A stretch of DNA of 62,201 bases, filler included, from Basidiobolus ranarum (taxonomy: Eukaryota), in assembly GCA_040143965.1 (NCBI GenBank). It is 13 parts of 13 records of this genome, joined end to end, with 100 filler letters (N's around TTAATTAATTAA, not from the genome) between each part and the next. Parts side by side here need not be neighbours in the genome. Positions count along the whole stretch, not along the records: positions 4,807 to 9,512 come from JASJQH010008732.1; 12 more parts are not named here. One strand, written 5' to 3'. Every line of letters begins with the position of its first letter. Position 1 is the stretch's first letter. The translations under genes and the position numbers were made by a program. The notes below the pieces were generated by a model, which did not search any database, had not been told where the DNA came from, and saw only the letters and a program-made list of their open reading frames with translations. This document shows positions 4,707 through 57,527 of the stretch, one piece after another.

Positions 4707-4806
4707 NNNNNNNNNNNNNNNNNNNNNNNNNNNNNNNNNNNNNNNNNNNNTTAATTAATTAANNNNNNNNNNNNNNNNNNNNNNNNNNNNNNNNNNNNNN
4801 NNNNNN
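4707..4806. other. Artificial contig linker (44N-TTAATTAATTAA-44N), one of 12
   Basis: Identical 100-bp spacers at 4707, 9513, 14316, 19115, 23912, 28708, 33501, 38292, 43080, 47866, 52650 and 57428. The core has stops in all six frames. Intervening contig lengths do not increase (4706, 4706, 4703, 4699, 4697, 4696, 4693, 4691, 4688, 4686, 4684, 4678, 4674). Confidence 0.99.
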
Positions 4807-4807
4807 T

Positions 4808-5152
4808 CCTTACAATAGACAAGACCCGTCTATGCGCCAATTTGGAAATGATCCTTTCAACAGACAAGACCCTTCTATGCGCCAATTTGGAAATGTTCCT
4901 TACACTAGACAAGACCCATCGGTACGCCAATATACAAATGCTCCTTTCAACAGACAAAACCCGTCCATGCGATTTGGAGGTGCTCCTTTCAACAGACAAG
5001 ACCCGTCCATGCGTCAATTTGGGAATGCTCCTTCCAACACACAAAACCCATCTATGCGCCAATATACAAATGCTCCTTACAACAGACAAAACCCATCCAT
5101 GATTCAATATCCAAATGCTTACTACAACAAACAAAATCCATCGATGGGCCAG
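4808..5152 (+). repeat. 45-bp coding minisatellite, ~8 units
   Basis: Recurrent CCTT(A/T)CAACAGACAA(G/A)ACCC-TC-ATGCG-CAAT every 45 nt (one unit of 42 nt). Confidence 0.92.
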
Positions 5153-5215
5153 TTTTCAAGTAGTCCATCCGAATTCCAATATTTAACCGCCCCTGGGAGG
5201 GTTATGAACCTTTGA
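4808..5215 (+). CDS. 3' end of a protein made of 15-aa tandem repeats (P-F/Y-N-R-Q-D/N-P-S-M-R-Q-F/Y-G/T-N-A), function unknown
   Basis: Frame is open from the contig edge to TGA at 5213-5215. About 8 repeat units differ partly at synonymous positions (e.g. CCG/CCT/CCA, TCT/TCC/TCG) and by one in-frame 3-bp deletion, consistent with coding constraint. Confidence 0.7.
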   Translation, partial: PYNRQDPSMRQFGNDPFNRQDPSMRQFGNVPYTRQDPSVRQYTNAPFNRQNPSMRFGGAPFNRQDPSMRQFGNAPSNTQNPSMRQYTNAPYNRQNPSMIQYPNAYYNKQNPSMGQFSSSPSEFQYLTAPGRVMNL

Positions 5216-6146: not shown

Positions 6147-7109
6147 TTAGAGCGGGACTGGATGACTGAGGGTAATGGCACAGTGACCCTCCAGGTCCGT
6201 CCACCAACATGCGAGCTTAAAACCGGCAGCTGCCAATTCCGAACGCAGTCCTTCCTCGCGGAACCTGTACGAGAACCCACAATGCAGCAGCTCCTTATCC
6301 TCGAACATAACTGTCTGCTCCGGTTGAGAGAGCGTGACGTTGAATGAACGACGGGCCCGTAAACAGCTCTCAACGCGCTCTTCTTGTGAGTTCCAGACTG
6401 TGACATGATCAAAGGAATCTGGATCAAAGTTGGCGCCCAGCTCGTAGTTGAGAACAGTCAAGCTATTCTTTAAGAATGAAGCCATAGTGCCCTCGTCGTC
6501 ATTGTACGCAGATACCATTGTCTGCTCATTTCTCAACAGGTTCGTTCCAAGAAGCAGGGCGTCACCAGGATTCAGCTGGGAGCGAATTGAAGACAGCAAG
6601 AGGTGACGTTGCGTTGGTGTATGATTTCCGAAAGTGCCACCAAGAATTGTCACCAAAGTGGGTCCATTCTGGGGGTTCAGGTTTAGAGATGTATTGAAAT
6701 CTCCGACTACGGACTGGATGACGAGATCCGGATAGTCTCTACATAATGTAGAAGCGCCTTTCTTCAGAGCGCTATGACTAAGATCCACCGCGGTGTAATG
6801 AGAGAGAGAGCCTTTTTCGTGAAGTACGCCTATTAAATGGTAAGTTTTTTCTGAAGAGGCAGAGCCGAGATCGACGAGGATACGGGCAGGAATGGATGCC
6901 GCTATATCGACCGCGTGACGTCTGAGAATCTCATGTTCGACATGGAGGATATAGTACCCGGGCATGTTGACGAGGGCATCAAAGAGTTCGCTGCCTCGGG
7001 AGTCATAAATGTATCTTCCGGGAAACCTCTTCGGAGTCTTAGCCAGTCCTGAGCGCATATCTTCCCGCTTCAAGGCGTCTAAGTTGACGGATTTATTAGC
7101 AATAGGCAT
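6147..7109 (-). CDS. egtD: EgtD-like SAM-dependent aromatic amino acid N-alpha-methyltransferase (Methyltransf_33 family), intronless, actinobacterial type
   Basis: 320-aa ORF with YDSRGSELFD..YY, LVDLGSASSEKT (SAM-binding loop), LGGTFGN, LNPGDALLLGT, AYNDDEG, WNSQEERVE and ELAAAGF..WWTD. It is colinear with mycobacterial EgtD as recalled and lacks the sulfoxide-synthase domain of fungal Egt1. Confidence 0.88.
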   Translation of the reverse strand: MPIANKSVNLDALKREDMRSGLAKTPKRFPGRYIYDSRGSELFDALVNMPGYYILHVEHEILRRHAVDIAASIPARILVDLGSASSEKTYHLIGVLHEKGSLSHYTAVDLSHSALKKGASTLCRDYPDLVIQSVVGDFNTSLNLNPQNGPTLVTILGGTFGNHTPTQRHLLLSSIRSQLNPGDALLLGTNLLRNEQTMVSAYNDDEGTMASFLKNSLTVLNYELGANFDPDSFDHVTVWNSQEERVESCLRARRSFNVTLSQPEQTVMFEDKELLHCGFSYRFREEGLRSELAAAGFKLACWWTDLEGHCAITLSHPVPL

Positions 7110-8105: not shown

Positions 8106-9512
8106 CTCTCCCACAACTAAATAGTCATATAAACTAATCCTAATAAAGGTCTAAATTTCTCAAATTTCTATCTAGCTAATGATTTGGTTAACATATCAGC
8201 AATCATGTCTTCTGTAGAGCAACAAGTTAAGTCTATAAACTTATTTTCTGTAGTCTCTCTAATGAAGTGATGCTTAATTTCTATGTGTTTGCTTCTATTA
8301 TGAAACATGGGATTTTTAGCTGATTTGATACAACTTTGATTATCTTGAAATATTGTAGTTGGTGAATTTTGAGAATAACCTAAATCTGTTAAGAGTTTTC
8401 TTAACCATATTGCTTCTTTTGTTGCTTCACAGGCAGCCTTGAATTCAGCTTCTGTTGTTGAAAGTGCTACAGTAGATTGTTTCTTTGAATTCCAATAAAT
8501 AGCTCCATTACAGCAAAGAAATAAGTATCCTGTCATAGATCTCCTGTCTTCAATATCTCTTACCTAATTTGTATCTGAATATCCCATCAGCTCAAAGTTT
8601 GATCCAGAAAATGTGTATTTTAAGCACAGATTCTCAGTACCTTTCAAATATCTGAAAATCCACTCAACTGCTATGATTTGATCAGATCCATAATTTTGAA
8701 GATATGGCACCTAACTCTCACACAATATGCAAAATCTGGCCATTTTCCAACCATGATATATATCAAACTACTAAACATTGATTGATGAGGAAAATTCTGG
8801 CTTTCATTTGAATGCAAAATCATCTTATTTGAGCCATTTTTGGTCAAGTTAAGATTTGTCTCCATTGGGGTAGATACTGGTTTACATTCTTCCATTTGAA
8901 ACTTCTTTAGTATATTTAGGATATACTTAGACTGGTTTAAAGTTATTGTTTTGGTAGTTCTATCTATCCTAATTTGGATTCCAAAATAGTATATCAGTTC
9001 ACCAGCTGGATTTGGTTTTCTCCAAAGTCTTCAAGTCATTGGTTGCTGTAATAAGGTCATCTACATACAAGGCTAATAAAACTGGGTTTGTCTTATCTGG
9101 CCTGAAGTAGATACTATAGTCAGCATTACTCTTTTGGAATTTGAGTGTTTCCAAAAAAGCATCTATCTTGCTATTCCAAGCTCTTGGAGATTGTTTTAAG
9201 CCATAGAGTGTTTTCCAGAGTCTGCAAACTTTTGTAGGGTTTTCTGGGTCCACAAAACCATCTGGCTAGTCCATATAGATCTCCTCAGCAAGCTCACAGT
9301 TCAAAAAGGTAGTTTTAACATCCATTTGATGTATAACAAGCTGATATTTAGCTGAAATTGCTAAAATCAATCTAATTCAATTAAACTTTGCTACAGGAGC
9401 AAAAGTTTCTGTTTAACCTATTCCTTGTGTTTAGGAATAGCCTTAGGCTACTAGTCTAGCCTTGACCTTTCTATATTGCTATCAGAGTTGTATTAAACCT
9501 TGAACACCCATT
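7758..9512 (-). mobile_element. Decayed Ty1/copia LTR retrotransposon, 3' half (RT, RNase H, PPT, 3' LTR family A)
   Basis: Interrupted frames encode LYGLKQSPRAWN, LALYVDDLI, KPVSTPME, SKKQSTVALSTTEAEF and DMIADMLTK. A polypurine tract (GTGGGAGAG on minus) abuts the LTR. Confidence 0.95.
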
Positions 9513-22182: not shown

Positions 22183-23151
22183 TCAGTCTTTTTTACCTGA
22201 CTTCTCCTTTTCAGCATTATTGGCAGGTGACATACCAGCTGCCATTCGAACTGGGGTGACAAGAGAAGACCAATCTTGTTCGGAGCATCCATTAGCTTTG
22301 GCAGCAAGTAAATGCTGGAAAGCTAAATCTGCTAATGGAAGTGGGCATTGAGATTCCTGTGCTAATCTACGCATATGACCTACATCCTTAAGGCCTAGAT
22401 CAACGGTGAAACCGACATCATCAACAAAAGAATCCTTCACCATTTTGGATGAGTATCCATTGTATGAACCAAATGGAAACATCAAGTCTATGAATTCCTT
22501 GATCTTTTCACGCGAGACTCCTGATTTCTCTCCGAATGTCATTCCTTCAGCCAACGCCTCAATCACGCTGACAATAAAGAAATTTCCCACAAGTTTGGTT
22601 TTGGCCGCGGCGGCAGGGTCCTGACCGAGGTCTAGAATGGCTCTTCCAATCACTGGCACCAAGTGAGGACGTATCTTTTCAAGGACCTTTTGAGACCCTG
22701 CAGGTACTAATATTAATTGTGCGGCTTGTGCAGCAGAGGTAGCTCCAAACACAGGCATAGATAAAAATTCGCATTTTTGGTTGGGTTTGGATATTTCTTC
22801 GCATCGTTTCGCGAGTTCTTTTACGGTATCGGGATACAGTGTACTAGTTTCAATTATCATTGAATCCTTGTTTTTGCTCTTTACAGCTTGAAATATTTCC
22901 TCATAAACTTTGAGAACAACACTGTCGTTAGCCAAGGAGACGAAAACTATATCACTTTGGCTTACAAGCTCAGCCACTGAGTCTATTTGTCTTCCACCAG
23001 CTTCTACCACTGGCTTGCATTTATCCAGAGTACGGTTCCAGACTAATACCGAAGGTAACTGTTCCTTAGCAAAATGCTTCTGGAGATTAAGTGCCATCGC
23101 CTGACCCATATTCCCCATACCGATAATTCCATATGTACTTTCCCCAGTCAT
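22183..23151 (-). CDS. NAD(P)-dependent beta-hydroxyacid dehydrogenase (3-hydroxyisobutyrate/6-phosphogluconate dehydrogenase-like), intronless
   Basis: GIIGMGNMGQAMALNL, WNRTLDK, IIETSTLYP, PVFGA, KLVGNF (catalytic Lys) and GFTVDLGLKD. Confidence 0.9.
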   Translation of the reverse strand: MTGESTYGIIGMGNMGQAMALNLQKHFAKEQLPSVLVWNRTLDKCKPVVEAGGRQIDSVAELVSQSDIVFVSLANDSVVLKVYEEIFQAVKSKNKDSMIIETSTLYPDTVKELAKRCEEISKPNQKCEFLSMPVFGATSAAQAAQLILVPAGSQKVLEKIRPHLVPVIGRAILDLGQDPAAAAKTKLVGNFFIVSVIEALAEGMTFGEKSGVSREKIKEFIDLMFPFGSYNGYSSKMVKDSFVDDVGFTVDLGLKDVGHMRRLAQESQCPLPLADLAFQHLLAAKANGCSEQDWSSLVTPVRMAAGMSPANNAEKEKSGKKD

Positions 23152-24011
23152 CTTTGTAAAACTTCTCGACAGTCAGTCAACACTATGACTTGCCTGTAAA
23201 GAATCCTTATACTTATACCAAATGTTCATGACGCAAACTTACGTGACCTGTTATGATTACAAAACATGATCTTAAAATAGCATATCATGAAAGAACAAAA
23301 GAATCCGGGATTTCCCGAATAATTATCTTCTAAATATTGTTCAGGATTCCGGGTAAAATAGGAAGATTCCACCAAACTCTCAAGGTGATCCGAGATATTT
23401 CTGAAATCGACTGAGTGATTGAATATGGATATCGGTACACCAACAATCTATTCCAAAATCTAGCATACGTAATATGCAACTGGAGAGAAGTATAGAGTAT
23501 GCTAGATAGAGTTTATCCTACCAAAATTTTCAAATTCCGATTTTAGAATGTGAAATTTATTCAAATATTCAGAAGTGATTATTCTCACGATTGAATCCTA
23601 ACATAACCACAATCTAAATACTAAAAACCGTGGCAAAATCTTGACTTCAAAATTCAATCAACTGATTTGTGACCGGTCCCAGACACCAATGAATCTTCAT
23701 TCCCCTTAAATATTCACACGCTTATACACCTGAATTGCTCACCAAGTAACACAAGATAAACTGTTGTCTTTATTTCATCATGGGATGACATGGTTGTATT
23801 CTCCACATATAAACTTCAACAACCGAATAGACTCCTTTATCGGCTTCTATCTGTAAAACAATCATGTCTCTTCTCAGAACTTCTACATCTCGCACCGTTG
23901 GGTTATTGAATNNNNNNNNNNNNNNNNNNNNNNNNNNNNNNNNNNNNNNNNNNNNTTAATTAATTAANNNNNNNNNNNNNNNNNNNNNNNNNNNNNNNNN
24001 NNNNNNNNNNN

Positions 24012-24283
24012 TTACAACCATAGCATAAACCTGGTTTCCTTCTTTTGTAACCTTTGTACTTGCCAAAGCTACATTTTCCAGCTCCAAAAAGAGCCACTTC
24101 CTCAGATTCTTTTTCCAAATTCTTACTTCTGAGATGTTGATCCATTAGCCTTGCTACCACAAACTCCAAAGACAACTTGTCAGATCTTGCTTCTAAAGCT
24201 GTGACCAAGTTTGAATATTGTTCTGGTAGACTACTTAGAAGACAGTTCTCTGATGATTTTGCAATATAGAAGGGTGGATCCAA
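24012..24283 (-). mobile_element. Ty1/copia gag fragment (separate element)
   Basis: LLSSLPEQYSNLVTALE..LSLEFVVARL..CYGC (UBN2-type gag and start of zinc knuckle). It lies downstream of the protease of the neighbouring element, so it is not part of the same ORF. Confidence 0.75.
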
Positions 24284-24517
24284 TCCAGCTCAAATCAATT
24301 TTATTTTTGTTAGGGGATCAAGTGTCACCCTTTCCAGTACATATGCAGCCAGTTTGTTTCTTCCAGCTACCATGATATCCAGATTTTCTATTTCTTTATA
24401 GGCATGCATTATGTTTGTTTTGTTACACATGTGACCACTTGCACCAGAATCCAGAATCCATACATCAGCAGAGTTATTTCCTGATTGAGAGATTGTCATA
24501 AGTACATAGTGGTCTTT

Positions 24518-24832
24518 TGTGGATATTTAATCTTTATTCACCATCTTAGTTAACTTTAGAAATGATAAATATATCAGAAACCACAAGCAAGCTATTGATA
24601 GCCCCTATATTCCAAACAGGAATATATATGTATCTATATAATAAGTATGTCTAAATACCCCCACTTATCTATTATATCTTCTTACACCAACACCTGAATA
24701 TCTCAAACAATTGATTTACTTCTCTACTATATAAGTCACCATACTCTCTTTAGAATAAAGTAACCAAAGACACTACCATCAGTTGCCTCTAACATACAAA
24801 GTCTACCCCCATTATATCAAGATTCTCTAACA
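24518..24832 (+). repeat. Solo LTR family B, inverted relative to host element
   Basis: Reverse-complement homologue of 25628-25941. Flanked by TCTTT/TCATT, a 4/5 match to a target-site duplication. Confidence 0.8.
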
Positions 24833-25618
24833 TCATTTCCACTTTTAATTTTGTTACATACTTCCTTTTTCTTTGAAACCCATTCCTTCTTTGATCTGCA
24901 ATATTATGCTATACCACATTTGTAACATTTCACAGTGCTCTTTTCTAGTTGGCTATTTTGAGAATAAAATGATTTTGTAGTTGTTGCTTCATCTGCAGGC
25001 TGACTTTTGTCTCTCCTTTTAAATTCTTCTTGATGTAGATGAGTGATCAGATGGTGCTGAGTAAGCTTATCCCCAATTGATTCCACAGTAAGCTCTAGGG
25101 CTGAATATGATTCAGGGAGACCATTACCTATGGTAAAAATTACATCCATTTCAGGTACCTCATAATTCATTGATTCTGGCTGTTGGGCAAGTTTCCTGAC
25201 ACCATTCACATATAGCATAATGTCAGAATTTTTAGACATATGAGAGTTATAGAATTTTCTTTGTAGCATCATCAAGTAAGCAAGTTCTTTTTGCTCATGA
25301 TGTTCCACTGGGATTTCCCATGCATTTTTGGCAGAGTTAGCATCTCTGACTAGCATAAGTTGTAGTGATTCTAGTCTTAGACATATTTCTGTAAATGCCA
25401 ATCTGTCATTTTCTTTAGTTGCCCTGGCTTCTTTGTTTCAGTGTAAGAATCTTTACTCTCTTCTTCAGATGTTTCTTCTTCAACTGGTTGAACTACTTCC
25501 CAGATATGTTTCTCTTCAAGCATAAGTTGCATCTTCAATTTCTATTCATGGGAATCTTCCCTATTGAATATTGGAATATTAGTAATCTCCTTTTGGGAAA
25601 AAGATTCTAAATCACTTG

Positions 25619-30788: not shown

Positions 30789-31611
30789 TTAGTTTACTTT
30801 TTTAACACTTCGGTACGTGAGTGATAGACGTGTCGTTCTTTCCAGTACACAAGGTACCATATCATGTGGTAGATTTAGCACACTCTTTTCGGATAAATCA
30901 TCAACAGTAGTTTCGTCAATCCCATGCCTGTAGTTCAGATACATATTTTCAGTTAGTATTACCAGACTTCTTGGTTCAAGAAGCAAGGAAAATTCAGGGG
31001 AACTGGTGCCATCTCGCAATGGATAGAAATCCAATAAAGTATGTGATCCTAAAGAGATGGTAGCCACTGTAGGATGATAAAATGCTCCATCTTCATGAGG
31101 CTGTCAAAGCAGTTAGAGATTTACCCAAGTGATTCAAGAAAGCAATTAGTTACCATTATTCCCTGTCCAGCCAAATATTCATTGATTAGAACATGATTAG
31201 CTTCACCCCCCATATTCTTAAATACACCAAGTCGTTCGAAGCGCGCAAAAGGGGCCTTTAGCCAAGGTTCAAGCTCCTCAGAGGTCATCCCCTCCACACT
31301 AGGAGTTCCGCCTGAATTGAATAGTCAGAAGTTTATTGGAAAAAATGCATTTTCTGGAATTCATAGGTACCCCAACTTTGAAGTCTACGATTACGGAGTC
31401 TAACCCAACGATTACCGGGAGCCAGGTACACCTAAATATTTATTGATCTTTAAGTTTATAAGGTATTTACTTTACTTGAAACAAACGATAATGAGCTTGT
31501 AGTCAATAGTACCTGTTTTCGAAGATATGTTTCTTCTATTTCCGTTATAAAATCTGGGATATAATATGCCGTGGCCGGTGTGCCTTTGACTTGATAATCT
31601 GTAAGATTCAT
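30789..31611 (-). CDS. ALKBH6: Fe(II)/2-oxoglutarate dioxygenase, AlkB homologue 6, spliced
   Basis: [46 protein letters not shown] (HxD), VATISLGSHTLLDFY, LLLEPRSLVI, YRHGI and RTTRLSLTYR. Confidence 0.93.
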
Positions 31612-35553: not shown

Positions 35554-37344
35554 AATCATTTAATAAATAGTAGAGATTCGGGATTTATAATTTATAATAT
35601 AAAGAATAAAATCAATAGAAAAAGGCTCGTATGTTACCTAAGATAGTTGGGTTCGAATCATTATTCTTCAAGTGGCTAGTTCTGTGATTGCAAATGCATT
35701 CAAGACAAACAAGATAAACAACGTCGCTACCTAATACATGGCCATTTAATGATCTGCTTCTATGTTCAGGTGGTTAGGAGAAAGGAGAGACTCGGGCTGA
35801 CAGTAAGTTTACATATGATATGACGCTACTCATCGGGGATTTATAATCTTGCCAAGACTGCTGAATGGTGGAATTTTCATTTATCCAACATACGTGTCCA
35901 CTTCACCACAAACACTGGAGCACGCTCTACGGTCCAGCCAGAAGAAATCAAACAATGTCTGAGATGCCCTGCTTTGACCCATCTGATACACAACTGCCAG
36001 AATTGCTTGCCATAATCTTTCGAGTTGGTGAATTTAATACTTCAGGCCCCATCGCCAACCGAGGGACCTGTGAGGTGCAACAGGGCGTCCAACCCTGAAC
36101 TGCAAGTGTCGGAGAGGCACAAAAACGAGGCGACAATCCACCGTCCCTTGATTTACACACACTGATGTGGTGGACGTCTTGGCCTAATGGGAAGAAAATC
36201 GAATGTCATATCATATCGTTTGATTATTGCAAATGATTCATATGGGTGTTGCAGTTCATTGGCTTGACGGCGAAGCTCTAATTTTATGACGATCATGTGT
36301 GAAAAGAATCATGTTTGTTTCAGTCATTGAGTTCTATCCCATTCTTGGGGAACGCCGTTTCACAGACAACATCGATGGTTTATTATGGCGGTACACATGA
36401 GACTTGGGCTTCACCCACTCATCTTCTCCCTTTTATTGGGTTGGAGTAAGTGAAAACACAAACCAAAATATTGACTCAGAAACATCTCAGAGCGTCCTGT
36501 TTTAAATGTCAGCGCGGTCCAAATCGCAATATAATGCATGCTTGATCCGTGTTTACTCGGCCAGCAGACTCGAGAGCTAATCAATCAGCTCAGATGCATT
36601 GTGAGTATTTATAGCATTAATATGAAGCGGTGACTTAGAACCATGATTTCAAATTCATTGGCGCGGAAGTGGTTAGGTTTAGTTGATTCTTCCGGCATTG
36701 CTGTTAGAATTTTTTAGAGTCACTTTAAAACCCGAAGAGTTTGACCTAACAACGGGCTAAAAACAGAGTGAACGGAATAAGAGTAGAGTTGTATATCACC
36801 ACTAATTAGTTTCGTCTTATGACACCTCATTTGTGAAAAAGCCAAGGGAAGAATTGATTCGACGAGTAATCTAGTGGACATGGAACCATTGATGCTGGTT
36901 GATTATGTCTCTAAACCCCGCCCCCGTCTCTTCTTTTATAATGCAAAACATCATCTGTATGAAGGGATAATGTACCAGTCACAATGTTCATCACATTAGA
37001 TACCTAGAGATGATTCACCCCTAATATCTGAATCTATTAAAGCAAGCGATTTCCCTCAGCAAACCCAGAGCCATTGATTCTGAACACTGCCCACTCCAAC
37101 TTCCCTACATCTATTTATTGTCCATCAAGCCTTCGTGGCAATCCATTCTCCCTTCCCAATCCCACTTGCTACCTATTTCCTAACCCCCGAAGTTGAACCT
37201 CTCTCAACCTAGAGGCCATCGATCTATTAAATTGCAGTGGTTATAAATGAGTCATCTGCTGACCTATATATTAATAACCCATCTGCTCTTCATTTCGTGA
37301 TCATATTACCCGCTGTACCTTTCTAGTAGCGGACCAAACATAGC

Positions 37345-38291
37345 ATGTTGTCTACGGTGCCTGTCTTCTCTGGCGTAAATAATCAGTATGGATCAGTGTT
37401 TACCGCGGCACTGGCCGCCAACAGCATCTCGATGGCCTGCTCAGCAACTGCTTTCCTAGTGTTAATTGGGCTAAAATACTACGATCGAAGTTTGGTAAAT
37501 CGAGTTTCATTGAGAATTAACAAATGGATGGCATTGGTAGATGTCGGGTATTGTGGGGCTCAAATACTGAACGTACAGAACAATAACGACACGATCTGGT
37601 GCATGCTGAGTGTCTGGCTTATCGTGTGGTTCACCCTGCTTTATTTATTTTTGAATACTATGATTGCATTTAATTTGCAAATAGTTTTCGTTCATGGAAA
37701 GAGAGATACTACCAGCTACGTCAAATACTACTATACCATATCAGTCTTCTTATCCCTGTTGATTAGCATCACTCCGTTCTTTGAAGGCAAATACGGCTTC
37801 TATACAATCTCTCAGACATGCTGGTGGACAAATGGGTACACCCCCAAGACCATTCTGTGGGAATGGATGACGTATCTTGGCTGGATCGCTGCAAGCGTGA
37901 TTTATTGCTTAATTGCAGTAAGTCTAGTAACATACAAATTAATTAAAGAGAGTCGGATCATTCGTGAACAAATCCAACATACCATTAGCCAAGAGCTTGG
38001 CTCCGAGTGGCAAGGCAAGACCAACATTGACAGGGATGTTCTTAAGGCTGTGAGACGTATTGTGCTATACCCCATAATCCCAATATTTACCCAAGGAGTC
38101 AACATCATTCAGGAAATGGACATCTACATGCACCGTAGAGCCAATTTCTACTTGTTTTTTCTAGCTTACTTTGCTGGTGCATTGCAGGGTACCTTCAACA
38201 CCCTAGTGTTCTTATTTGATCCGGCGGTTGTGCATGCTTGTAAGCGCATACAAGCTGATTTCACCGATCGTTACGCCAATTCTTTATCTTC
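37345..38291 (+). CDS. 7-TM G-protein-coupled receptor, cAMP-receptor/Git3-like, intronless, 3'-truncated
   Basis: Seven hydrophobic segments with NRVSLR after TM1, Cys at TM3 start, CWW in ECL2, RRIVLYPIIP and LQGTFNTLVFLFDP. Confidence 0.85.
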
Positions 38292-41200
38292 NNNNNNNNN
38301 NNNNNNNNNNNNNNNNNNNNNNNNNNNNNNNNNNNTTAATTAATTAANNNNNNNNNNNNNNNNNNNNNNNNNNNNNNNNNNNNNNNNNNNNGATTTGATA
38401 CCGAAGCACTTCAAACAATTATGTAATTGGGTGGATTCTCCCCATTAGCCCGCATTCATAGCCAGAACTGGTCTGGAATGTTGAACAATCTTTAACACAC
38501 ATTACTCCAACAAAACTGTAATACTTTTACGTACCATTGATTTCCCTTTTTAAATTGGGATTACATATGACAGCACGCAAATAGATATCGTCCACCAAGA
38601 GGTTGATTGTACTTTAAATCGGCGAAAAATACTACGGTGTCCGTAGCCATTATGACCGATATCTCAGATACTCTATTGTAGCTCATAATCGGAGCCGCAA
38701 GCTCCTGAAACCATTCACTATCCGCACGTTTGCCTATTGTTGGAGGTCAACTTTTTCTTTTTGCTGACACTTTGCCACCTTTATGCAAGAGTAAAACTGG
38801 GTTTTATAACACATAAAATGGAAACCAGTCTTCAGTAGTTGGGTGTGAATTAAATGCTAATGAGGATAGCACATTGGTATTAGTTCAGCAAAATTGAAAA
38901 CCTAAAGCCTGACCAAATCGAGACTTGCAATTGAAATTCTCGTTGGCTCCCGATTCATAATCATCTGATCTACAATGATGATTTGTACATCTCAAAAGCG
39001 TTCTTTGGTTACGCTTGGCGAACTTCAATATTCTTGATGACAAGACCGTCGTAACTGCGTTGGACAGTGATATGAGCTGCTACAGTACCCTTCGCCAATA
39101 TACAAGGTCTCTAGTATTCTTCCTCTACTACACATCTTCAACATGCTAGACTGGACCCAGTAAAATTCAAGTGAATACAGGAACATTCGTAAGTTTGCTG
39201 AGATTCGCCAGGTAGTCAGTCACTTTGATTTACCCGGAATGCTTAAGAAATATATTGGTTTTAATTTCGTCATGGATGAGTAAGGCATCCATTGGCTAAA
39301 GTGAAATCATCTATCGATCAAGATACTCAAATATATTCTGAAATCTGAGAACTGTCTTGCTTGTATCTTGGGTACTTCTCTTGTTACTGTTTGCTTTCAT
39401 TGGTATACTTCAAGCTCAAGTGAAAAAGATACATGTATAGTGTACAATACTAGTTGTTTCATCACTGTTTATAAGAGTAAATATTATCTGTAGAGCAGCT
39501 ATGATGAAGAAGGTTTGAAAGGCTTCTACGTTAATCTTAGAAGCTGTCACCATCGATCCACGTGACTTATAGTTACAATCACAAGATTATATCAAGGAGT
39601 TGCACTTTGTATTTCACTGCCAAATCGTCAATCAGACGATCTCTGAGGTATGTAATTTCTGGAAGTGACAGATGTAAGTAAAGCTCGAGTTATCAGTATT
39701 CCGCCAATTAAATAGGCTAGAGATTTCCATATTATTTGGGAGAAATCATGAATGTCTAGATGTCAAAATAGGTAATTATCCCCCAATCTTGTCATTGGAA
39801 TTGCATGTAATAGATGATAAACAACTTATCATGATTATTATGGGTTCACTGCAGTTAGCGATTGCATTTTTTTTCATATTTCCAACAAACCTCCATTCAA
39901 TAAACTATTAGAGAATTACTAGAAGAGGGATTGATTGATATATACGGCATTCCAGCAAAAGGCACCAAACCCATCCTTTTATATCATTGTTTATATAGGC
40001 TGAATGTCAATGCGTAATTAACATCTTCGCCTAATATATCTAAAAACCGGAAAACTAACACCATCAAATCTCCAATCTAGGTTAAGTGTTACGGATTGTA
40101 TACAGCAAGCCAATTGGTCGGCGGCACAACCATAGGGCTGAGCGTGCCAGAAGGTTCATGAATTTCACTTTTCACCAAGTTACTACTGATTATAGCTTTT
40201 TGAATTTCTAGGCTACTGGCCCTTCCTCGCCTTTTCTAGCAAGATTGGGTTAATTCGAAAGTCTCTGGGGTTTCCTTGTACGAGTTAGGAAACTCCATCT
40301 TTAATGAGATTTTTTTGCGAAAATTCGTTCTTTAAAATTCCTAGACCATAAACTTTCATATCGTCTCTTGAGGGCCTGAATGTCAAACTGTATAACATCG
40401 TGGTGCAATAATGAATGGAGAAGGCTCTAAATTTTGGTTGTAGCATCAAGATGGCATCAATTTCCCCTGCATACGTTACACAATGTTAAAAAGTTTATCC
40501 TTTGTCCAGTAGGTCAGTTCGATTCGGGTTTGATTGTGCAAGTAACAGCATTAATTATTGTCACGGGGTACTGTTTGAACTCACTCCAACATCGAGGTTG
40601 ATGCTGATAGCCAGTGTGGATAGACGAGAGTATTCTTCCTATCATTTCTGGGGAACGTGCAATCAATTTACCAAAGTCTCTAGCGCCAACCCTCTCCACT
40701 GCTCAGGCCCAAAAAAATGAATGCTGATGGTTTAGCCATAGTTCCGATGTTCAAGTGAAATGATCAATTGTTGGCTTGTTCTGAGGTGATTAGTATCTTT
40801 GTTTGATGGGTATTGCCACGAGATCATTATGGTAGTACTGTAGGTTTGTAGAACCTGAACAGGTCCCTGATGCAGGTTTTTCGATTCAATTAAACTGGCT
40901 TCGATACAGGATCCCGAGTATCCGGGCAATTTTTAATGAGATAATTGGGTCTTTCAACCACCTGATTTTGGTGATATAATAGCTGAAACATTTATGGGAG
41001 AGCCACCAAACCGACTCATTCAAGAACGATTTATGACCACGACGAGAAATTAGTATGTGTCTTGCTTGCTTTTTAAAAACAACTTCAATTTACTTTGCTG
41101 ATTTAACGTAAAATAAGCCAGTAAATACACAGAAAAGGTACTTATAAGTGTCCGGTTACTACACATATGGAGGAACTTAAGGCAGAGGCAGATGCCAACT

Positions 41201-49659: not shown

Positions 49660-52190
49660 TATTAAGCATGGGTGAAAATTTTGGGCAATTTGGATTGGTA
49701 AAGTGAACTGATTCATATTTTGAGCAATTAGAGCAATAAATACACATTTTTGAATGGCAGAATCAAGTGCTAAATAATCAGAATAAGAATAAACTGACTC
49801 CTAAATAATGCGTGGCTATTTACCTAATTTCCACATTCTCATTCAACTGCTTATTTTGTATTTGCAATAAACCCAACTTGTGTCCTAATAATTCAAATTG
49901 TGCCTTAGCTAAAGGTTTGGTTAAGATGTCAGCAATTGTTTCTTCAGTAGGGCAATATGCAAGTTCAATTATAACATTCCCTATAGCTTCAACAATATGA
50001 TACCTAATTTCTATTTTTTTGTTCTAGCATCAAAGGTAGGACTTTTAGCTAATGAAAGACAACTTTGATTATGTTCATATACAGCAATAGCACACCATTT
50101 CATGCATCCTAAGTCTTTAAATAACTTCCTTAACCCCAAAGCTTCTTGTTTAGTAGCAGAGGCAGCCTTATTTGTTGCCACTGTAGTGGATAGTGGTATG
50201 GCTGGTTGCTTCTTACTATTCCAAAGAATGTCTCCATTAGCATTGAGAAAAGTATACCCAGTTATTGTTCTTCTATCATCAAGGTTTTTGCTCCAGTCTG
50301 CATCAGAAGTGCCAGAGTATTCCAGAACTTGGTCCACAGTTCTTCTCAAATACCCAATTATTTATCTCACTGTACTTTTGTGATTGGATCTTGGATTTTT
50401 GAAATATTGGCTGACAGTTCCAGTGGCCACCACAATGTATGGACATGTTTCAACCATTTTATATATTTAACTACCCATCATAGTTTGATAAGCAATCTCC
50501 ATGCTATGATTTGGTCACTTGGGGCTAAATCAGATGAAATGTTAAATAATTTCACATAGGGATCTATTGGAGTTGATACAGGCTTACTATTCTCCATGTT
50601 GGAGTGTCTTAGGATGTCTAAGAAGTATCTAGACTGATTCAGCATTTTTTTTGGATTGGTAATATTGCTCTTGATTTGGATTCCATACAAATAACATAAA
50701 TCACCCATGTCAGTAAGAAATTGGTTTGATAAGCTGCTTTGATCTGATTAAGTGCTTCTAGAATGTTTGTGGCTATGAGAAAGTCTTCCACACATATTGC
50801 CAACATAACAGTCCCATATCTGGTTTTTTGTTGTAAATTCTGAGTTCTGCTGTGCATTTTTGGAACTCCAGTGACTTCAAGTATGTATCTATCTTGTTGT
50901 GCCATGCCCTGGGTGTTTTCTTGAGTCAATATGGCAATTTTTGTAGTTTGCAGAGAGTATCTGGGTGTTTTGAGTTAACAAATTCATCTGGTTGGCCTCT
51001 CAAGATTGCTTCTTCTAGATTTCCATTAAGAAAGGCTGCTTTGACATTCATTTGATGTAAATAACTGTTATGGATGGCAGAGAGTGCCAGGATTGATCTA
51101 ATGGAGCAAAACCTAGCTACCAGAGCAATAGTTTTATCAAAATCAAATCGTGGAGTCTGGGAATAACTTTGCATGACCAATCTTGCTTTGTACCTTTCTA
51201 TGGTTCCATCAGCTTGGTTTTCAACTTTATATACCTATTTGCAGCCTGTGGGCTTTGTTCCTGATGGTCAAAGATGCAAACCCATATTTTATTGTTTTGA
51301 AGTGAAGAAATTTTGTCTTACAATGTTTTTTCCCACATTTTTGAGTTTGGACACTCCAGAGCTTGATCTAGAGTCTGCAAAAGCATAGACTTCATTTTTG
51401 AAACTGTTTAACCAGTGCCCTGGCTTAATCATCCTCCAGGTCCAAAATCTTTCTATAATGTAATTTGGGCTTGAATTTTGATTGAGTTGGGCTCAGATAC
51501 AGCTGGAATGTTGCCAGCCACCTCCTAGGCTTTGTACTAAATATCACATCTTGGTACTTGATTAGCTTCTGATATTTGGTATCAAACAGTCTGCAGGCCT
51601 TAGATCCATTACAGTAACAAAGAAATAAGCATTTTCTACATTTGAGTACCAGCTTAGGGTGCTTTTGAGCTGGAATTAGGCAAAATGCAGTGCAACCAAA
51701 GATCCTCAGATGATCCACATGTGGTTTTGCTCCATATTGGGCTTAAATTGGAGTAAAATTTTGTAGCAATCTTGTCATGCATCTGTGTTTGATCTAGACT
51801 TGGGGTTAGGAATCTTGTTGGGCATCTGTTTTTGATATAGACTGCAGTGGAGACAGATTCAGCCCAATATTGGTGATTTAACTTCTGATCATGTAACATT
51901 GATCTTGCCATCTCTACTATGGTCTTATTAGCACATTCTGCCACTCCATGTTGCTGTGTAGTGTAAGATACAGTAGTTTGTTACTTAAATCCAAGTTGAC
52001 ATCAAAAACTGGCATAGTTTTGAGATCAATATTCTCCACCATTATCACTTCTTATTACCCTTATTTTTTGTGCGGATTCTTTCTCCACCATTGCTATGTA
52101 TATATAAAAGTAGCTAAAACTCCAGATTGTGAAATAAGAAAGAATACCTAAGAATATCTTGTTTTGTCATCAATAAAGGTAATAAAGTAC
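49660..52190 (-). mobile_element. Decayed Ty1/copia element (integrase, RT, RNase H, 3' LTR family C 49660-49835)
   Basis: GVAECANKTIVEMARSML, YWAESVSTAVYIKNRCPT, HLRIFGC, RYKARLV, HQMNVKAAFLNGNLEE, SDADWS and WNSKKQ. The LTR is the inverted homologue of 48504-48704. Confidence 0.93.
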
Positions 52191-56617: not shown

Positions 56618-57527
56618 TTTGCCCCCCCTACTGACCTGAAGCCACTGTGCTAGAGGAGTGAATGATGCGCTGCATAGAACAGTTGCCAAACTTGCGATGG
56701 AAGCACCAAGGGACAAGTTTATTGATGTACTTTGATGCTGGGCAATTGAGAGCCAGAGTGCCGGTGATTAGATGTGTCATGTAATATGCTACAGCTTAGC
56801 AGCTGCCAGAAAACAAAAAGTTGGCTCTGACGGATGGTCTTATGCATAAGCAGTGGAAACTTAGATAGCAACTACTTTGTGAACTAATCCTCATTGCCAA
56901 CAAATAAAACAAGAAAAATTAATAGTTGCTTGATCTGAATCAGTTTAATTAAGAGATGAGAAATCATGTTTGCACCTGATTTACTAAGCCGTAAGTTACA
57001 AATTTATTCACTTAATTCACCTCGCAATTTAAATCAGTGCAAAGCGTAATGCTTATTGGAAAATCTCAGACTTACCAAGACACGTCAATGACCACTCCCC
57101 TTACATGACCCATCTGAGGCTTTTTTCGCTTCACATTATGTTTCAATGGTATTGGCTGCTGATGTGTATTAGTAAGACAAGGAACAGGAGGCAGATTCCT
57201 AATAAAAAAGCGCATACGGTCCATTGAATGTTATAATGATTGTTCTTTTCTTCCTGAGCCTAATAATCTTTCTTCTTTGGGATAAATATCTCAAGAATAG
57301 ACCGTACCGCCGTCCCAGCCATCAGGAAGGAAAGGAAATCCAAGGTAGGTAGCTGAGTTCTGAGCAGATAAAGTTGAACCATTCAAAGAGAGTGAGCAGC
57401 CTAGAGGAACAGTCTTGGCTAAGGAGANNNNNNNNNNNNNNNNNNNNNNNNNNNNNNNNNNNNNNNNNNNNTTAATTAATTAANNNNNNNNNNNNNNNNN
57501 NNNNNNNNNNNNNNNNNNNNNNNNNNN

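Follow-up and report, generated by a model that had tools for sequence, protein, structure and literature searches.

A stretch of 62,201 nucleotides from Basidiobolus ranarum (assembly GCA_040143965.1; 13 parts joined end to end, filler included), hereafter called the window, carries on its minus strand a gene for a methyltransferase of the EgtD family, the protein P0001, in which the residues that recognise the imidazole ring of histidine have been replaced and those that hold the amino-acid backbone have been kept. We lean towards reading P0001 as an active alpha-N-methyltransferase that would act on an amino acid other than histidine, one whose side chain is large and either hydrophobic or aromatic. 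The gene and its principal sites are listed below. Equivalent residues are numbered as in M. smegmatis EgtD, i.e. the window residue plus four, because a gap of one residue near the N-terminus is the only one in the alignment to EgtD.

6147..7109, minus strand: coding sequence of P0001, an S-adenosylmethionine (SAM)-dependent methyltransferase of the EgtD family (PF10017), from the open reading frame (ORF), its translation, Pfam, the EgtD alignment and an AlphaFold2 (AF2) model
6264..6626, minus strand: codons 162-282, from N162 (EgtD N166) to R282 (EgtD K286), the span of a preliminary description of this DNA, with codon coordinates checked
6276..6278, minus strand: G278, equivalent of the imidazole-side Glu282; Gly also in the LCM-linked Streptomyces clade and in both Basidiobolus relatives described below
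6366..6368, minus strand: S248, equivalent of Met252; Asn in the rest of that clade, Val in the engineered tryptophan enzyme
6471..6473, minus strand: L213, equivalent of Asn217, from the alignment
6483..6485, minus strand: M209, equivalent of Thr213; Thr in the Streptomyces clade, Leu in the two Basidiobolus relatives
6624..6641, minus strand: the conserved loop G157-G-T-F-G-N162, G161...N166 of EgtD, which binds the alpha-amino group according to the available portions of PMC9103826 and PMC8593015
6858..6860, minus strand: A84 in SAM motif I, LGSAS against LGSGS (G88A), in a Gly column conserved at 1.0 in the family

The codons run from 7109 to 6150 with the stop at 6147-6149 (320 codons plus stop), and no intron is needed. 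P0001 belongs to Pfam PF10017 (Methyltransf_33, the EgtD/EasF superfamily) with an E-value of 2.1e-87 and 293.5 bits against a cut-off of 23, the match covering residues 15-314 and profile positions 2-301 of 304. In a phmmer search of the Protein Data Bank (PDB) sequences, EgtD entries were the only matches (six distinct sequences, E 8.9e-69 to 3.6e-66). The AF2 model, built from a 60-sequence alignment, has a mean predicted local distance difference test score (pLDDT) of 92.9 and a predicted template-modelling score (pTM) of 0.89. Superposed with Foldseek on histidine-bound EgtD (4uy7_A), a check of the kind that the preliminary description had proposed, it shows the two-domain EgtD fold with a template-modelling (TM) score of 0.95 and a root-mean-square deviation of 1.6 A, whereas the next non-EgtD methyltransferases reach only 0.42-0.52. 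A profile search of the window found a single EgtD-like copy.

All the changed side-chain positions of the pocket fall within 6264..6626 (minus strand). On the backbone side of the amino-acid site, Y35 (EgtD Y39), F43 (F47), Y52 (Y56), G157 (G161), T159 (T163), N162 (N166), Y202 (Y206), F212 (F216) and S280 (S284) are kept, as are D109 (D113) and D137-F138 (D141-F142) of the SAM site. On the side-chain side, P0001 has M209 for T213, L213 for N217, S248 for M252, G278 for E282 and R282 for K286. The backbone-binding columns are near-invariant among 235 aligned family sequences, 151 of which carry T/N/M/E/K at the five positions 213, 217, 252, 282 and 286; the combination M/L/S/G/R occurs in one of the 235, P0001 itself. 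The residue pairs named in the preliminary description were all correct, including Ser and Gly rather than Met and Glu at the 252- and 282-equivalents. Further changes close to the pocket or at conserved sites, absent from that description, are V220S, R253C, T281C, V283F, C285Y, L167H, G88A, D194N, K197R, R94Y and PGYYILH in place of PEYYPTR. The alignment to the EgtD structures is near-ungapped and is anchored by PDB entry 4PIP (title: engineered EgtD-M252V,E282A with tryptophan and S-adenosylhomocysteine), whose Val and Ala fall on S248 and G278; the same title bears out the conversion of EgtD into a tryptophan enzyme by changes at M252 and E282 that the preliminary description had cited.

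In EgtD, the carboxylate of the substrate is bound by Tyr206, Ser284 and Tyr56 and its alpha-amino group by Asn166, while the imidazole is contacted via a water that Thr213 and the carbonyl of Ala205 keep in place, Glu282 lying close by (available portion of PMC8593015). Asn166 and Gly161 are described as critical to the sequential methylations in the accessible part of PMC9103826. The alpha-amino/carboxylate clamp (Asn166, Gly161, Tyr56, Tyr206 and Ser284) is present in P0001 as N162, G157, Y52, Y202 and S280; in place of the imidazole-recognising Thr213 and Glu282, with Met252, stand M209, G278 and S248, the last two being small residues at 252 and 282 as in the tryptophan-methylating EgtD variants.

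Since the cofactor site and both clamps are kept, P0001, folded according to its model and probably active as a SAM-dependent alpha-N-methyltransferase, should have kept the ability to bind a free L-amino acid and to methylate its alpha-nitrogen. One to three methyl transfers would be expected and, Asn166 and Gly161 being retained, methylation may run to the betaine. The replacement of the ring-reading residues (Thr213 to Met, Glu282 to Gly, Met252 to Ser and Asn217 to Leu) makes an amino acid other than histidine the most likely substrate, and the presence of S248 and G278 at the positions engineered in 4PIP likewise makes histidine unlikely. A large hydrophobic or aromatic side chain would be favoured, because Met, Leu, Cys, Phe and Tyr line the pocket and Ser and Gly occupy the 4PIP positions; the product would then be an N-methylated or betaine derivative.

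The profile scores are in line with this reading. The top NCBIfam match of P0001 is TIGR03438, the EgtD equivalog, but at 262.3 bits it stays below the cut-off of 290.9, and no ergothioneine domain (EgtB DinB_2 plus FGE-sulfatase, EgtC, EgtE or EgtA) was found in the 116 window ORFs of at least 70 amino acids. The preliminary view that this is probably not an ergothioneine enzyme is thus supported, and the loss of the imidazole residues and the retention of the backbone binders in an EgtD-family pocket are borne out, whereas the aromatic nature of the substrate that it put forward is only suggested. Its dimethylallyl-tryptophan option finds no support in the EasF model TIGR03439 (4-dimethylallyltryptophan N-methyltransferase), whose cut-off is 205.55 bits and on which P0001 reaches 154.4.

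With regard to origin, a word-indexed search of 5.8 billion proteins gave an EgtD of Streptomyces bacillaris as the best non-self match (48% identity), all the named matches among the 81 returned being bacterial, and P0001 forms a singleton when the protein collection is clustered at 90% identity. An exhaustive search of 1.84 billion representatives returned 7,955 matches at E <=0.001, none of them above 54% identity to P0001. The best three were P0082 (B. ranarum hypothetical protein KAK9685403.1, 48% identity), P0083 (by exact look-up, a cluster of Streptomyces proteins) and P0084, and the most identical was P0090, a 216-residue fragment from B. meristosporus (hypothetical protein ORX83412.1, 54% identity).

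A tree of 44 rows, from which fungal Egt1 domains were absent, was then computed with IQ-TREE (LG+C20+F+G4; supports as ultrafast bootstrap/SH-aLRT). P0001, P0082 and P0090 group together (100/99), and this Basidiobolus trio is sister to 11 Streptomyces proteins (100/99), all 14 being united at 100/99; the three fungal rows were flagged for a letter composition unlike that of the remaining rows. The canonical EgtDs of Wenjunlia and two unnamed proteins bring the group to 17 rows (98/97), after which the canonical Streptomyces EgtDs join (89/87). As the trio is sister to Streptomyces paralogues that are themselves nested among canonical Streptomycetaceae EgtDs, the tree, within the rows it holds, indicates that the Basidiobolus gene is a horizontal acquisition from a Streptomycetaceae-type donor. 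A quick tree had given a single "Gly282 clade" that included the metagenome proteins P0094, P0226 and P0157; it was dropped when the careful tree placed these elsewhere, so that Gly282 has more than one origin. Searching with a profile of the clade alignment (8,000 candidates scored) gave no fungal name among the best 120 matches, and since P0082 and P0090 were likewise missing from them, absence from other fungi is not proven.

Such an acquisition has a background in the genus. Between 2 and 5% of Basidiobolus genes bear signatures of horizontal gene transfer (HGT), with Actinobacteria as the third commonest donor group, and HGT genes have fewer introns (available text of PMC7466969). Guanine-plus-cytosine (GC) content, 50% for the gene vs. 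43-45% for the other window ORFs, was not used as an HGT signal, because HGT and native genes of B. meristosporus are both at about 0.49 (Tabima et al., same portion of PMC7466969).

A bacterial contaminant contig was also considered and rejected on the uninterrupted stretch, the flank GC, the fungal neighbours and the GC of third codon positions (GC3). The gene sits in one unbroken stretch of 4,706 bases between regular 44-N blocks, its flanks have 34% GC, and its GC3 is 0.53 vs. more than 0.85 in Streptomyces genes. The window as a whole has 37% GC, contains three copia-type fragments and holds intron-split housekeeping genes (protein kinase, PUA, ERGIC/ERV, R3H, PTR2, SWIB and Brix), among which a Brx1 exon shows 94% identity to B. 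meristosporus and no more than 68% to the other named matches.

The Streptomyces sister proteins are characterised by a partner gene. At all six clade loci in Streptomyces (64-98% identity to P0234), a gene of the LCM family lies upstream on the same strand, ending about 35 bases before the EgtD paralogue, and its protein matches PF04072 and, with 171 bits, NCBIfam TIGR00027. None of the four other loci returned has an LCM gene, one of them having an EgtC-like amidotransferase gene instead. Large AAA_16/GerE (LuxR-type) regulators flank the LCM-paralogue pair in the three loci scanned (about 9130-10990 in L001-L006), and one Streptomyces locus has a SARP/NB-ARC regulator and an MFS transporter beside it; no nonribosomal peptide synthetase, polyketide synthase or aromatic-pathway gene was found in the three Streptomyces loci scanned. 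The clade passes the TIGR03438 cut-off (306.1 vs. 290.9 bits), and its proteins are automatically named L-histidine N(alpha)-methyltransferase although they have neither Glu282 nor Met252. Canonical family members among the matches are fused to EgtB (DinB_2 plus FGE-sulfatase), EgtA, EgtC or EgtE domains. Because S. uncialis and strain UNOC14_S4 each hold a canonical EgtD beside their clade member, the LCM-linked clade is, judging from the gene complements, a paralogue with a job separate from that of the ergothioneine enzyme.

The partner left a trace in the fungus. The gene model of P0082 opens with an LCM portion that covers profile positions 104-186 of 187, the C-terminal half of the domain, and continues with the EgtD-like domain. 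Against the Streptomyces LCM proteins, residues 1-181 reach 42-45% identity (E 1e-45 to 1e-50), which indicates that the LCM and EgtD-paralogue genes travelled together. Residues 1-185 of P0082 correspond to the LCM part without its N-terminal half; either the gene model is cut at the edge of its contig (4,075 bases) or of a mask, or the LCM half is degenerate. A Basidiobolus ancestor would thus have acquired a two-gene cassette from Streptomycetaceae, the LCM/TIGR00027-type methyltransferase followed by the EgtD paralogue. P0001 falls in the clade by its place in the tree and has no LCM gene upstream or fused to it: no LCM homologue was found in the window (tblastn best E 1.1; profile best E 1), nor any remnant upstream of the gene. 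Of the pocket signature of the clade, it has Gly282 and a small residue at 220 (Ser), with Asn252 turned into Ser and Val281 into Cys.

The pocket itself seems to have changed in steps. The changes P58I/L, N217V/A, V220G, M252N, R253A, T281V and E282G map to the bacterial stem of the 14-member clade, whose immediate outgroups have the canonical residues throughout; within the clade, position 282 is Gly in all 14 members and Met252 is retained in none. F47Y, T59D and R60E/D are further changes of the bacterial members. In fungal members, Thr213 has become Leu or Met and position 217 Phe, Cys or Leu, and the window copy alone has N252S, V281C, K286R, G88A, D194N, K197R and R94Y. As the stem changes are shared by the whole clade against canonical outgroups, the loss of Glu282 would be inherited and not a fungal invention: on the aligned sequences, E282G and the loss of M252 arose in bacteria, before the transfer, and the window copy later moved further from its own clade. 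In this respect the preliminary description, which saw a fungal EgtD being rewired, was mistaken about the origin.

Whether such a divergent copy still functions bears directly on the proposed activity. The nonsense-to-missense ratio for the gene sequence is 0.047-0.053, and had the terminal branch (0.45 changes per site) been neutral throughout, the frame would have stayed open with a probability of about 0.001. When 400 frames were simulated under AT-biased mutation, 1.5% remained free of stops at a protein divergence of 20%, and 12% did so at 10%. The intact 320-codon frame therefore makes a long neutral decay unlikely; a recent loss of function is possible. The preliminary description had named inactivity and neutral evolution as what would overturn its reading, and the open frame answers this for prolonged decay and not for a recent loss.

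Several observations weigh against an active enzyme with an enlarged pocket for a new substrate. P0001 deviates at 9 of the 48 columns that are at least 90% conserved, where the family median is 1 (P0082 has 8 and P0094 has 10). The larger cavity foreseen in the preliminary description is not established, since V283F and C285Y add bulk close to the pocket; the Ala at motif-I residue 84, seen in the window copy only, is a possible weakening of cofactor binding; and the copy may have lost its pathway, the ancestral LCM partner being absent from all 62 kb. Taken to their end, these points describe an orphaned relic, a copy that lost its LCM partner after transfer and duplication and is now impaired or drifting, with no role or a non-catalytic one. 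G88A, D194N, K197R, K286R and R94Y occur in the window copy alone at columns conserved at 94-100%, the copy departs from its own clade signature at 252 and 281, a copia fragment lies about 1.5 kb upstream, and its singleton status fits as well. We nevertheless find such a relic rather improbable: a frame open over 320 codons would survive neutral drift with a probability of about 0.001-0.05 at 20-45% divergence, those substitutions at conserved sites that are peculiar to the window copy are conservative ones (D to N, K to R, G to A, E to D, I to L), all the backbone-binding and most of the SAM-site residues are kept, the terminal branch (0.45) is not longer than those of the relatives as a group (0.37 and 0.56), and the model is predicted to fold with high pLDDT.

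If P0001 is active, its substrate could still differ from a free aromatic amino acid. Members of the LCM/TIGR00027 family methylate carboxyl groups, and an ancestral partner of this family would suggest an esterified intermediate, so that an amino-acid methyl ester, an aliphatic or sulfur amino acid, an amine or a peptide N-terminus may be envisaged. The bacterial clade shows a charge reversal near the lid (T59-R60 to D-E/D), its cassette is flanked by regulators and transporters and not by aromatic-pathway enzymes, and the Met, Leu, Cys, Phe and Tyr lining of the window pocket singles out neither indole nor phenol. To this are opposed the equivalents of the carboxylate binders Tyr56, Tyr206 and Ser284, all kept, which argue for a free carboxylate, and the fact that the one case in which small residues at both 252 and 282 have been linked to a substrate by experiment is that of tryptophan, in 4PIP; we accordingly give such substrates a minor chance. 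That P0001 is still a histidine N-alpha-methyltransferase making hercynine for ergothioneine would agree with the best database names, the best structures and the top NCBIfam match, all of them EgtD, and with the passing TIGR03438 score of its Streptomyces cousins. It is nonetheless very improbable, given the replacement of Thr213, Glu282 and Met252 together, the score below the equivalog cut-off, the want of any EgtB, EgtC or EgtE domain in the window ORFs when canonical relatives are fused to or beside such genes, and the canonical EgtD that Streptomyces strains keep next to their clade member. Within the preferred reading of an active non-histidine enzyme, a bolder version can be proposed only tentatively, namely that the orphan copy evolved, after duplication, a third and different pocket (M/L/S/C-G-F/Y/R) and makes a new betaine-type product made by neither the donor bacteria nor other fungi.

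The immediate surroundings of the gene revealed no biosynthetic cluster, its neighbours being a Q/N-rich repeat ORF, a copia fragment and housekeeping genes. The repeat ORF, about 1 kb downstream of the methyltransferase and without Pfam match, reaches 5212 and contains at 4807-5155 (plus strand) a 45-nucleotide tandem repeat of 7.8 copies (78% match), which encodes, at the C-terminal end of the ORF, a Q/N/P-rich unit of 15 residues (roughly PxNRQDPSMRQFGNx). Fragments of copia-type long terminal repeat retrotransposons were found on the minus strand at 8674-9265, i.e. about 1.5 kb upstream of the methyltransferase start, at 24014-25437 and at 50929-51742; they show RVT_2, Retrotran_gag_2, Pol_BBD and SH3_retrovirus domains interrupted by stops. 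A second long intronless ORF (22186-23172, minus strand, 329 amino acids) resembles NAD-binding 6-phosphogluconate/3-hydroxyisobutyrate dehydrogenases (PF03446 and PF14833), and an ORF at 30792-31103 (minus strand) has a weak 2-oxoglutarate-Fe(II) oxygenase match to PF13532, at 28.3 bits below the cut-off of 31.2. An intronless ORF of 321 amino acids at 37330-38292 (plus strand) has several hydrophobic stretches and no Pfam match, and looks by eye like a multi-pass membrane protein, possibly receptor-like. The N runs were not taken as assembly gaps: the 24 blocks come as pairs of 44 N with 12 bases between them, about every 4,790 bases (4707-4750 and 4763-4806, recurring to 57484-57527), and were read as masks.

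As for the significance of these results, the gene points to a Streptomyces clade that databases name histidine methyltransferase despite its lost histidine-reading residues, and to the crossing of a pair, LCM gene and EgtD paralogue, into an early-diverging, gut-associated fungus already known for its uptake of bacterial genes. Finding the substrate would put right a systematic mis-annotation. A new small metabolite could come to light in Streptomyces as well as in Basidiobolus, and the sequence-to-specificity map on which methyltransferase engineering draws would gain a natural data point. Should the third-pocket proposal be true, a captured Streptomyces cassette of two methyltransferases would make an undescribed N-methylated amino-acid metabolite. 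In the literature consulted, no description was found of the LCM-linked Streptomyces clade, of its transfer to Basidiobolus or of the divergent orphan copy, the HGT tables of PMC7466969, which possibly list the B. meristosporus homologue, lying outside this scope; one supplementary file of PMC11291939 has no occurrence of ORX83412, PF10017, Methyltransf_33, Histidine-specific or 320271.

Compared with known systems, P0001 shares with the EgtDs of M. smegmatis and M. tuberculosis (4PIM, 4PIO, 4UY6 and 7SCF) the family, the fold, the length and about 38-41% identity (Foldseek), together with the alpha-amino/carboxylate clamp and the acidic and aromatic residues of the SAM site. It differs from them by the replacement of Thr213, Asn217, Met252, Glu282 and Lys286, by its score below the TIGR03438 cut-off and by being a stand-alone fungal gene with no ergothioneine gene context in the window. 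The EasF family, which acts on dimethylallyl-tryptophan, is set apart by the TIGR03439 cut-off. TrpM of Psilocybe serbica, which acts on tryptophan, offers a precedent for an EgtD scaffold retargeted to an aromatic amino acid; it arose within fungi by a duplication linked to ergothioneine biosynthesis (available portion of PMC11659798), unlike the window gene, which would come from bacteria.

P0001 and the engineered EgtD M252V/E282A of 4PIP both have small residues at 252 and 282, Ser and Gly in the former and Val and Ala in the latter. However, 4PIP keeps Thr213, Asn217, Thr281, Val283 and Lys286 where P0001 has M, L, C, F and R, so the pocket of P0001 is not simply that of 4PIP. The two Basidiobolus relatives, P0082 and P0090, share with P0001 the PGYY motif, a hydrophobic residue for T213, Tyr285 and G276K, and both keep Asn252, Val281, Lys286 and the motif-I Gly where covered. 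The Streptomyces LCM-linked paralogues (S. netropsis, S. jumonjinensis, S. syringium, S. uncialis and others) form the sister clade, at 42-47% identity, and have E282G, the loss of Met252, a small residue for V220, P58I/L and E84D in common with P0001; they keep Thr213 and have Asn252 and Val281, where P0001 has M, S and C, and P0001 has no LCM partner in the window.

Fungal tyrosine and tryptophan betaine synthases built on the EgtD scaffold were reportedly described by Vit et al. in 2015. To our knowledge, this scaffold is among the few known routes to amino-acid betaines, and no more than a small number of its specificities (His, Trp, Tyr and dimethylallyl-Trp) have been linked to sequence. 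The retargeting of the EgtD scaffold to aromatic amino acids is therefore already known, and P0001 is not a new kind of system.

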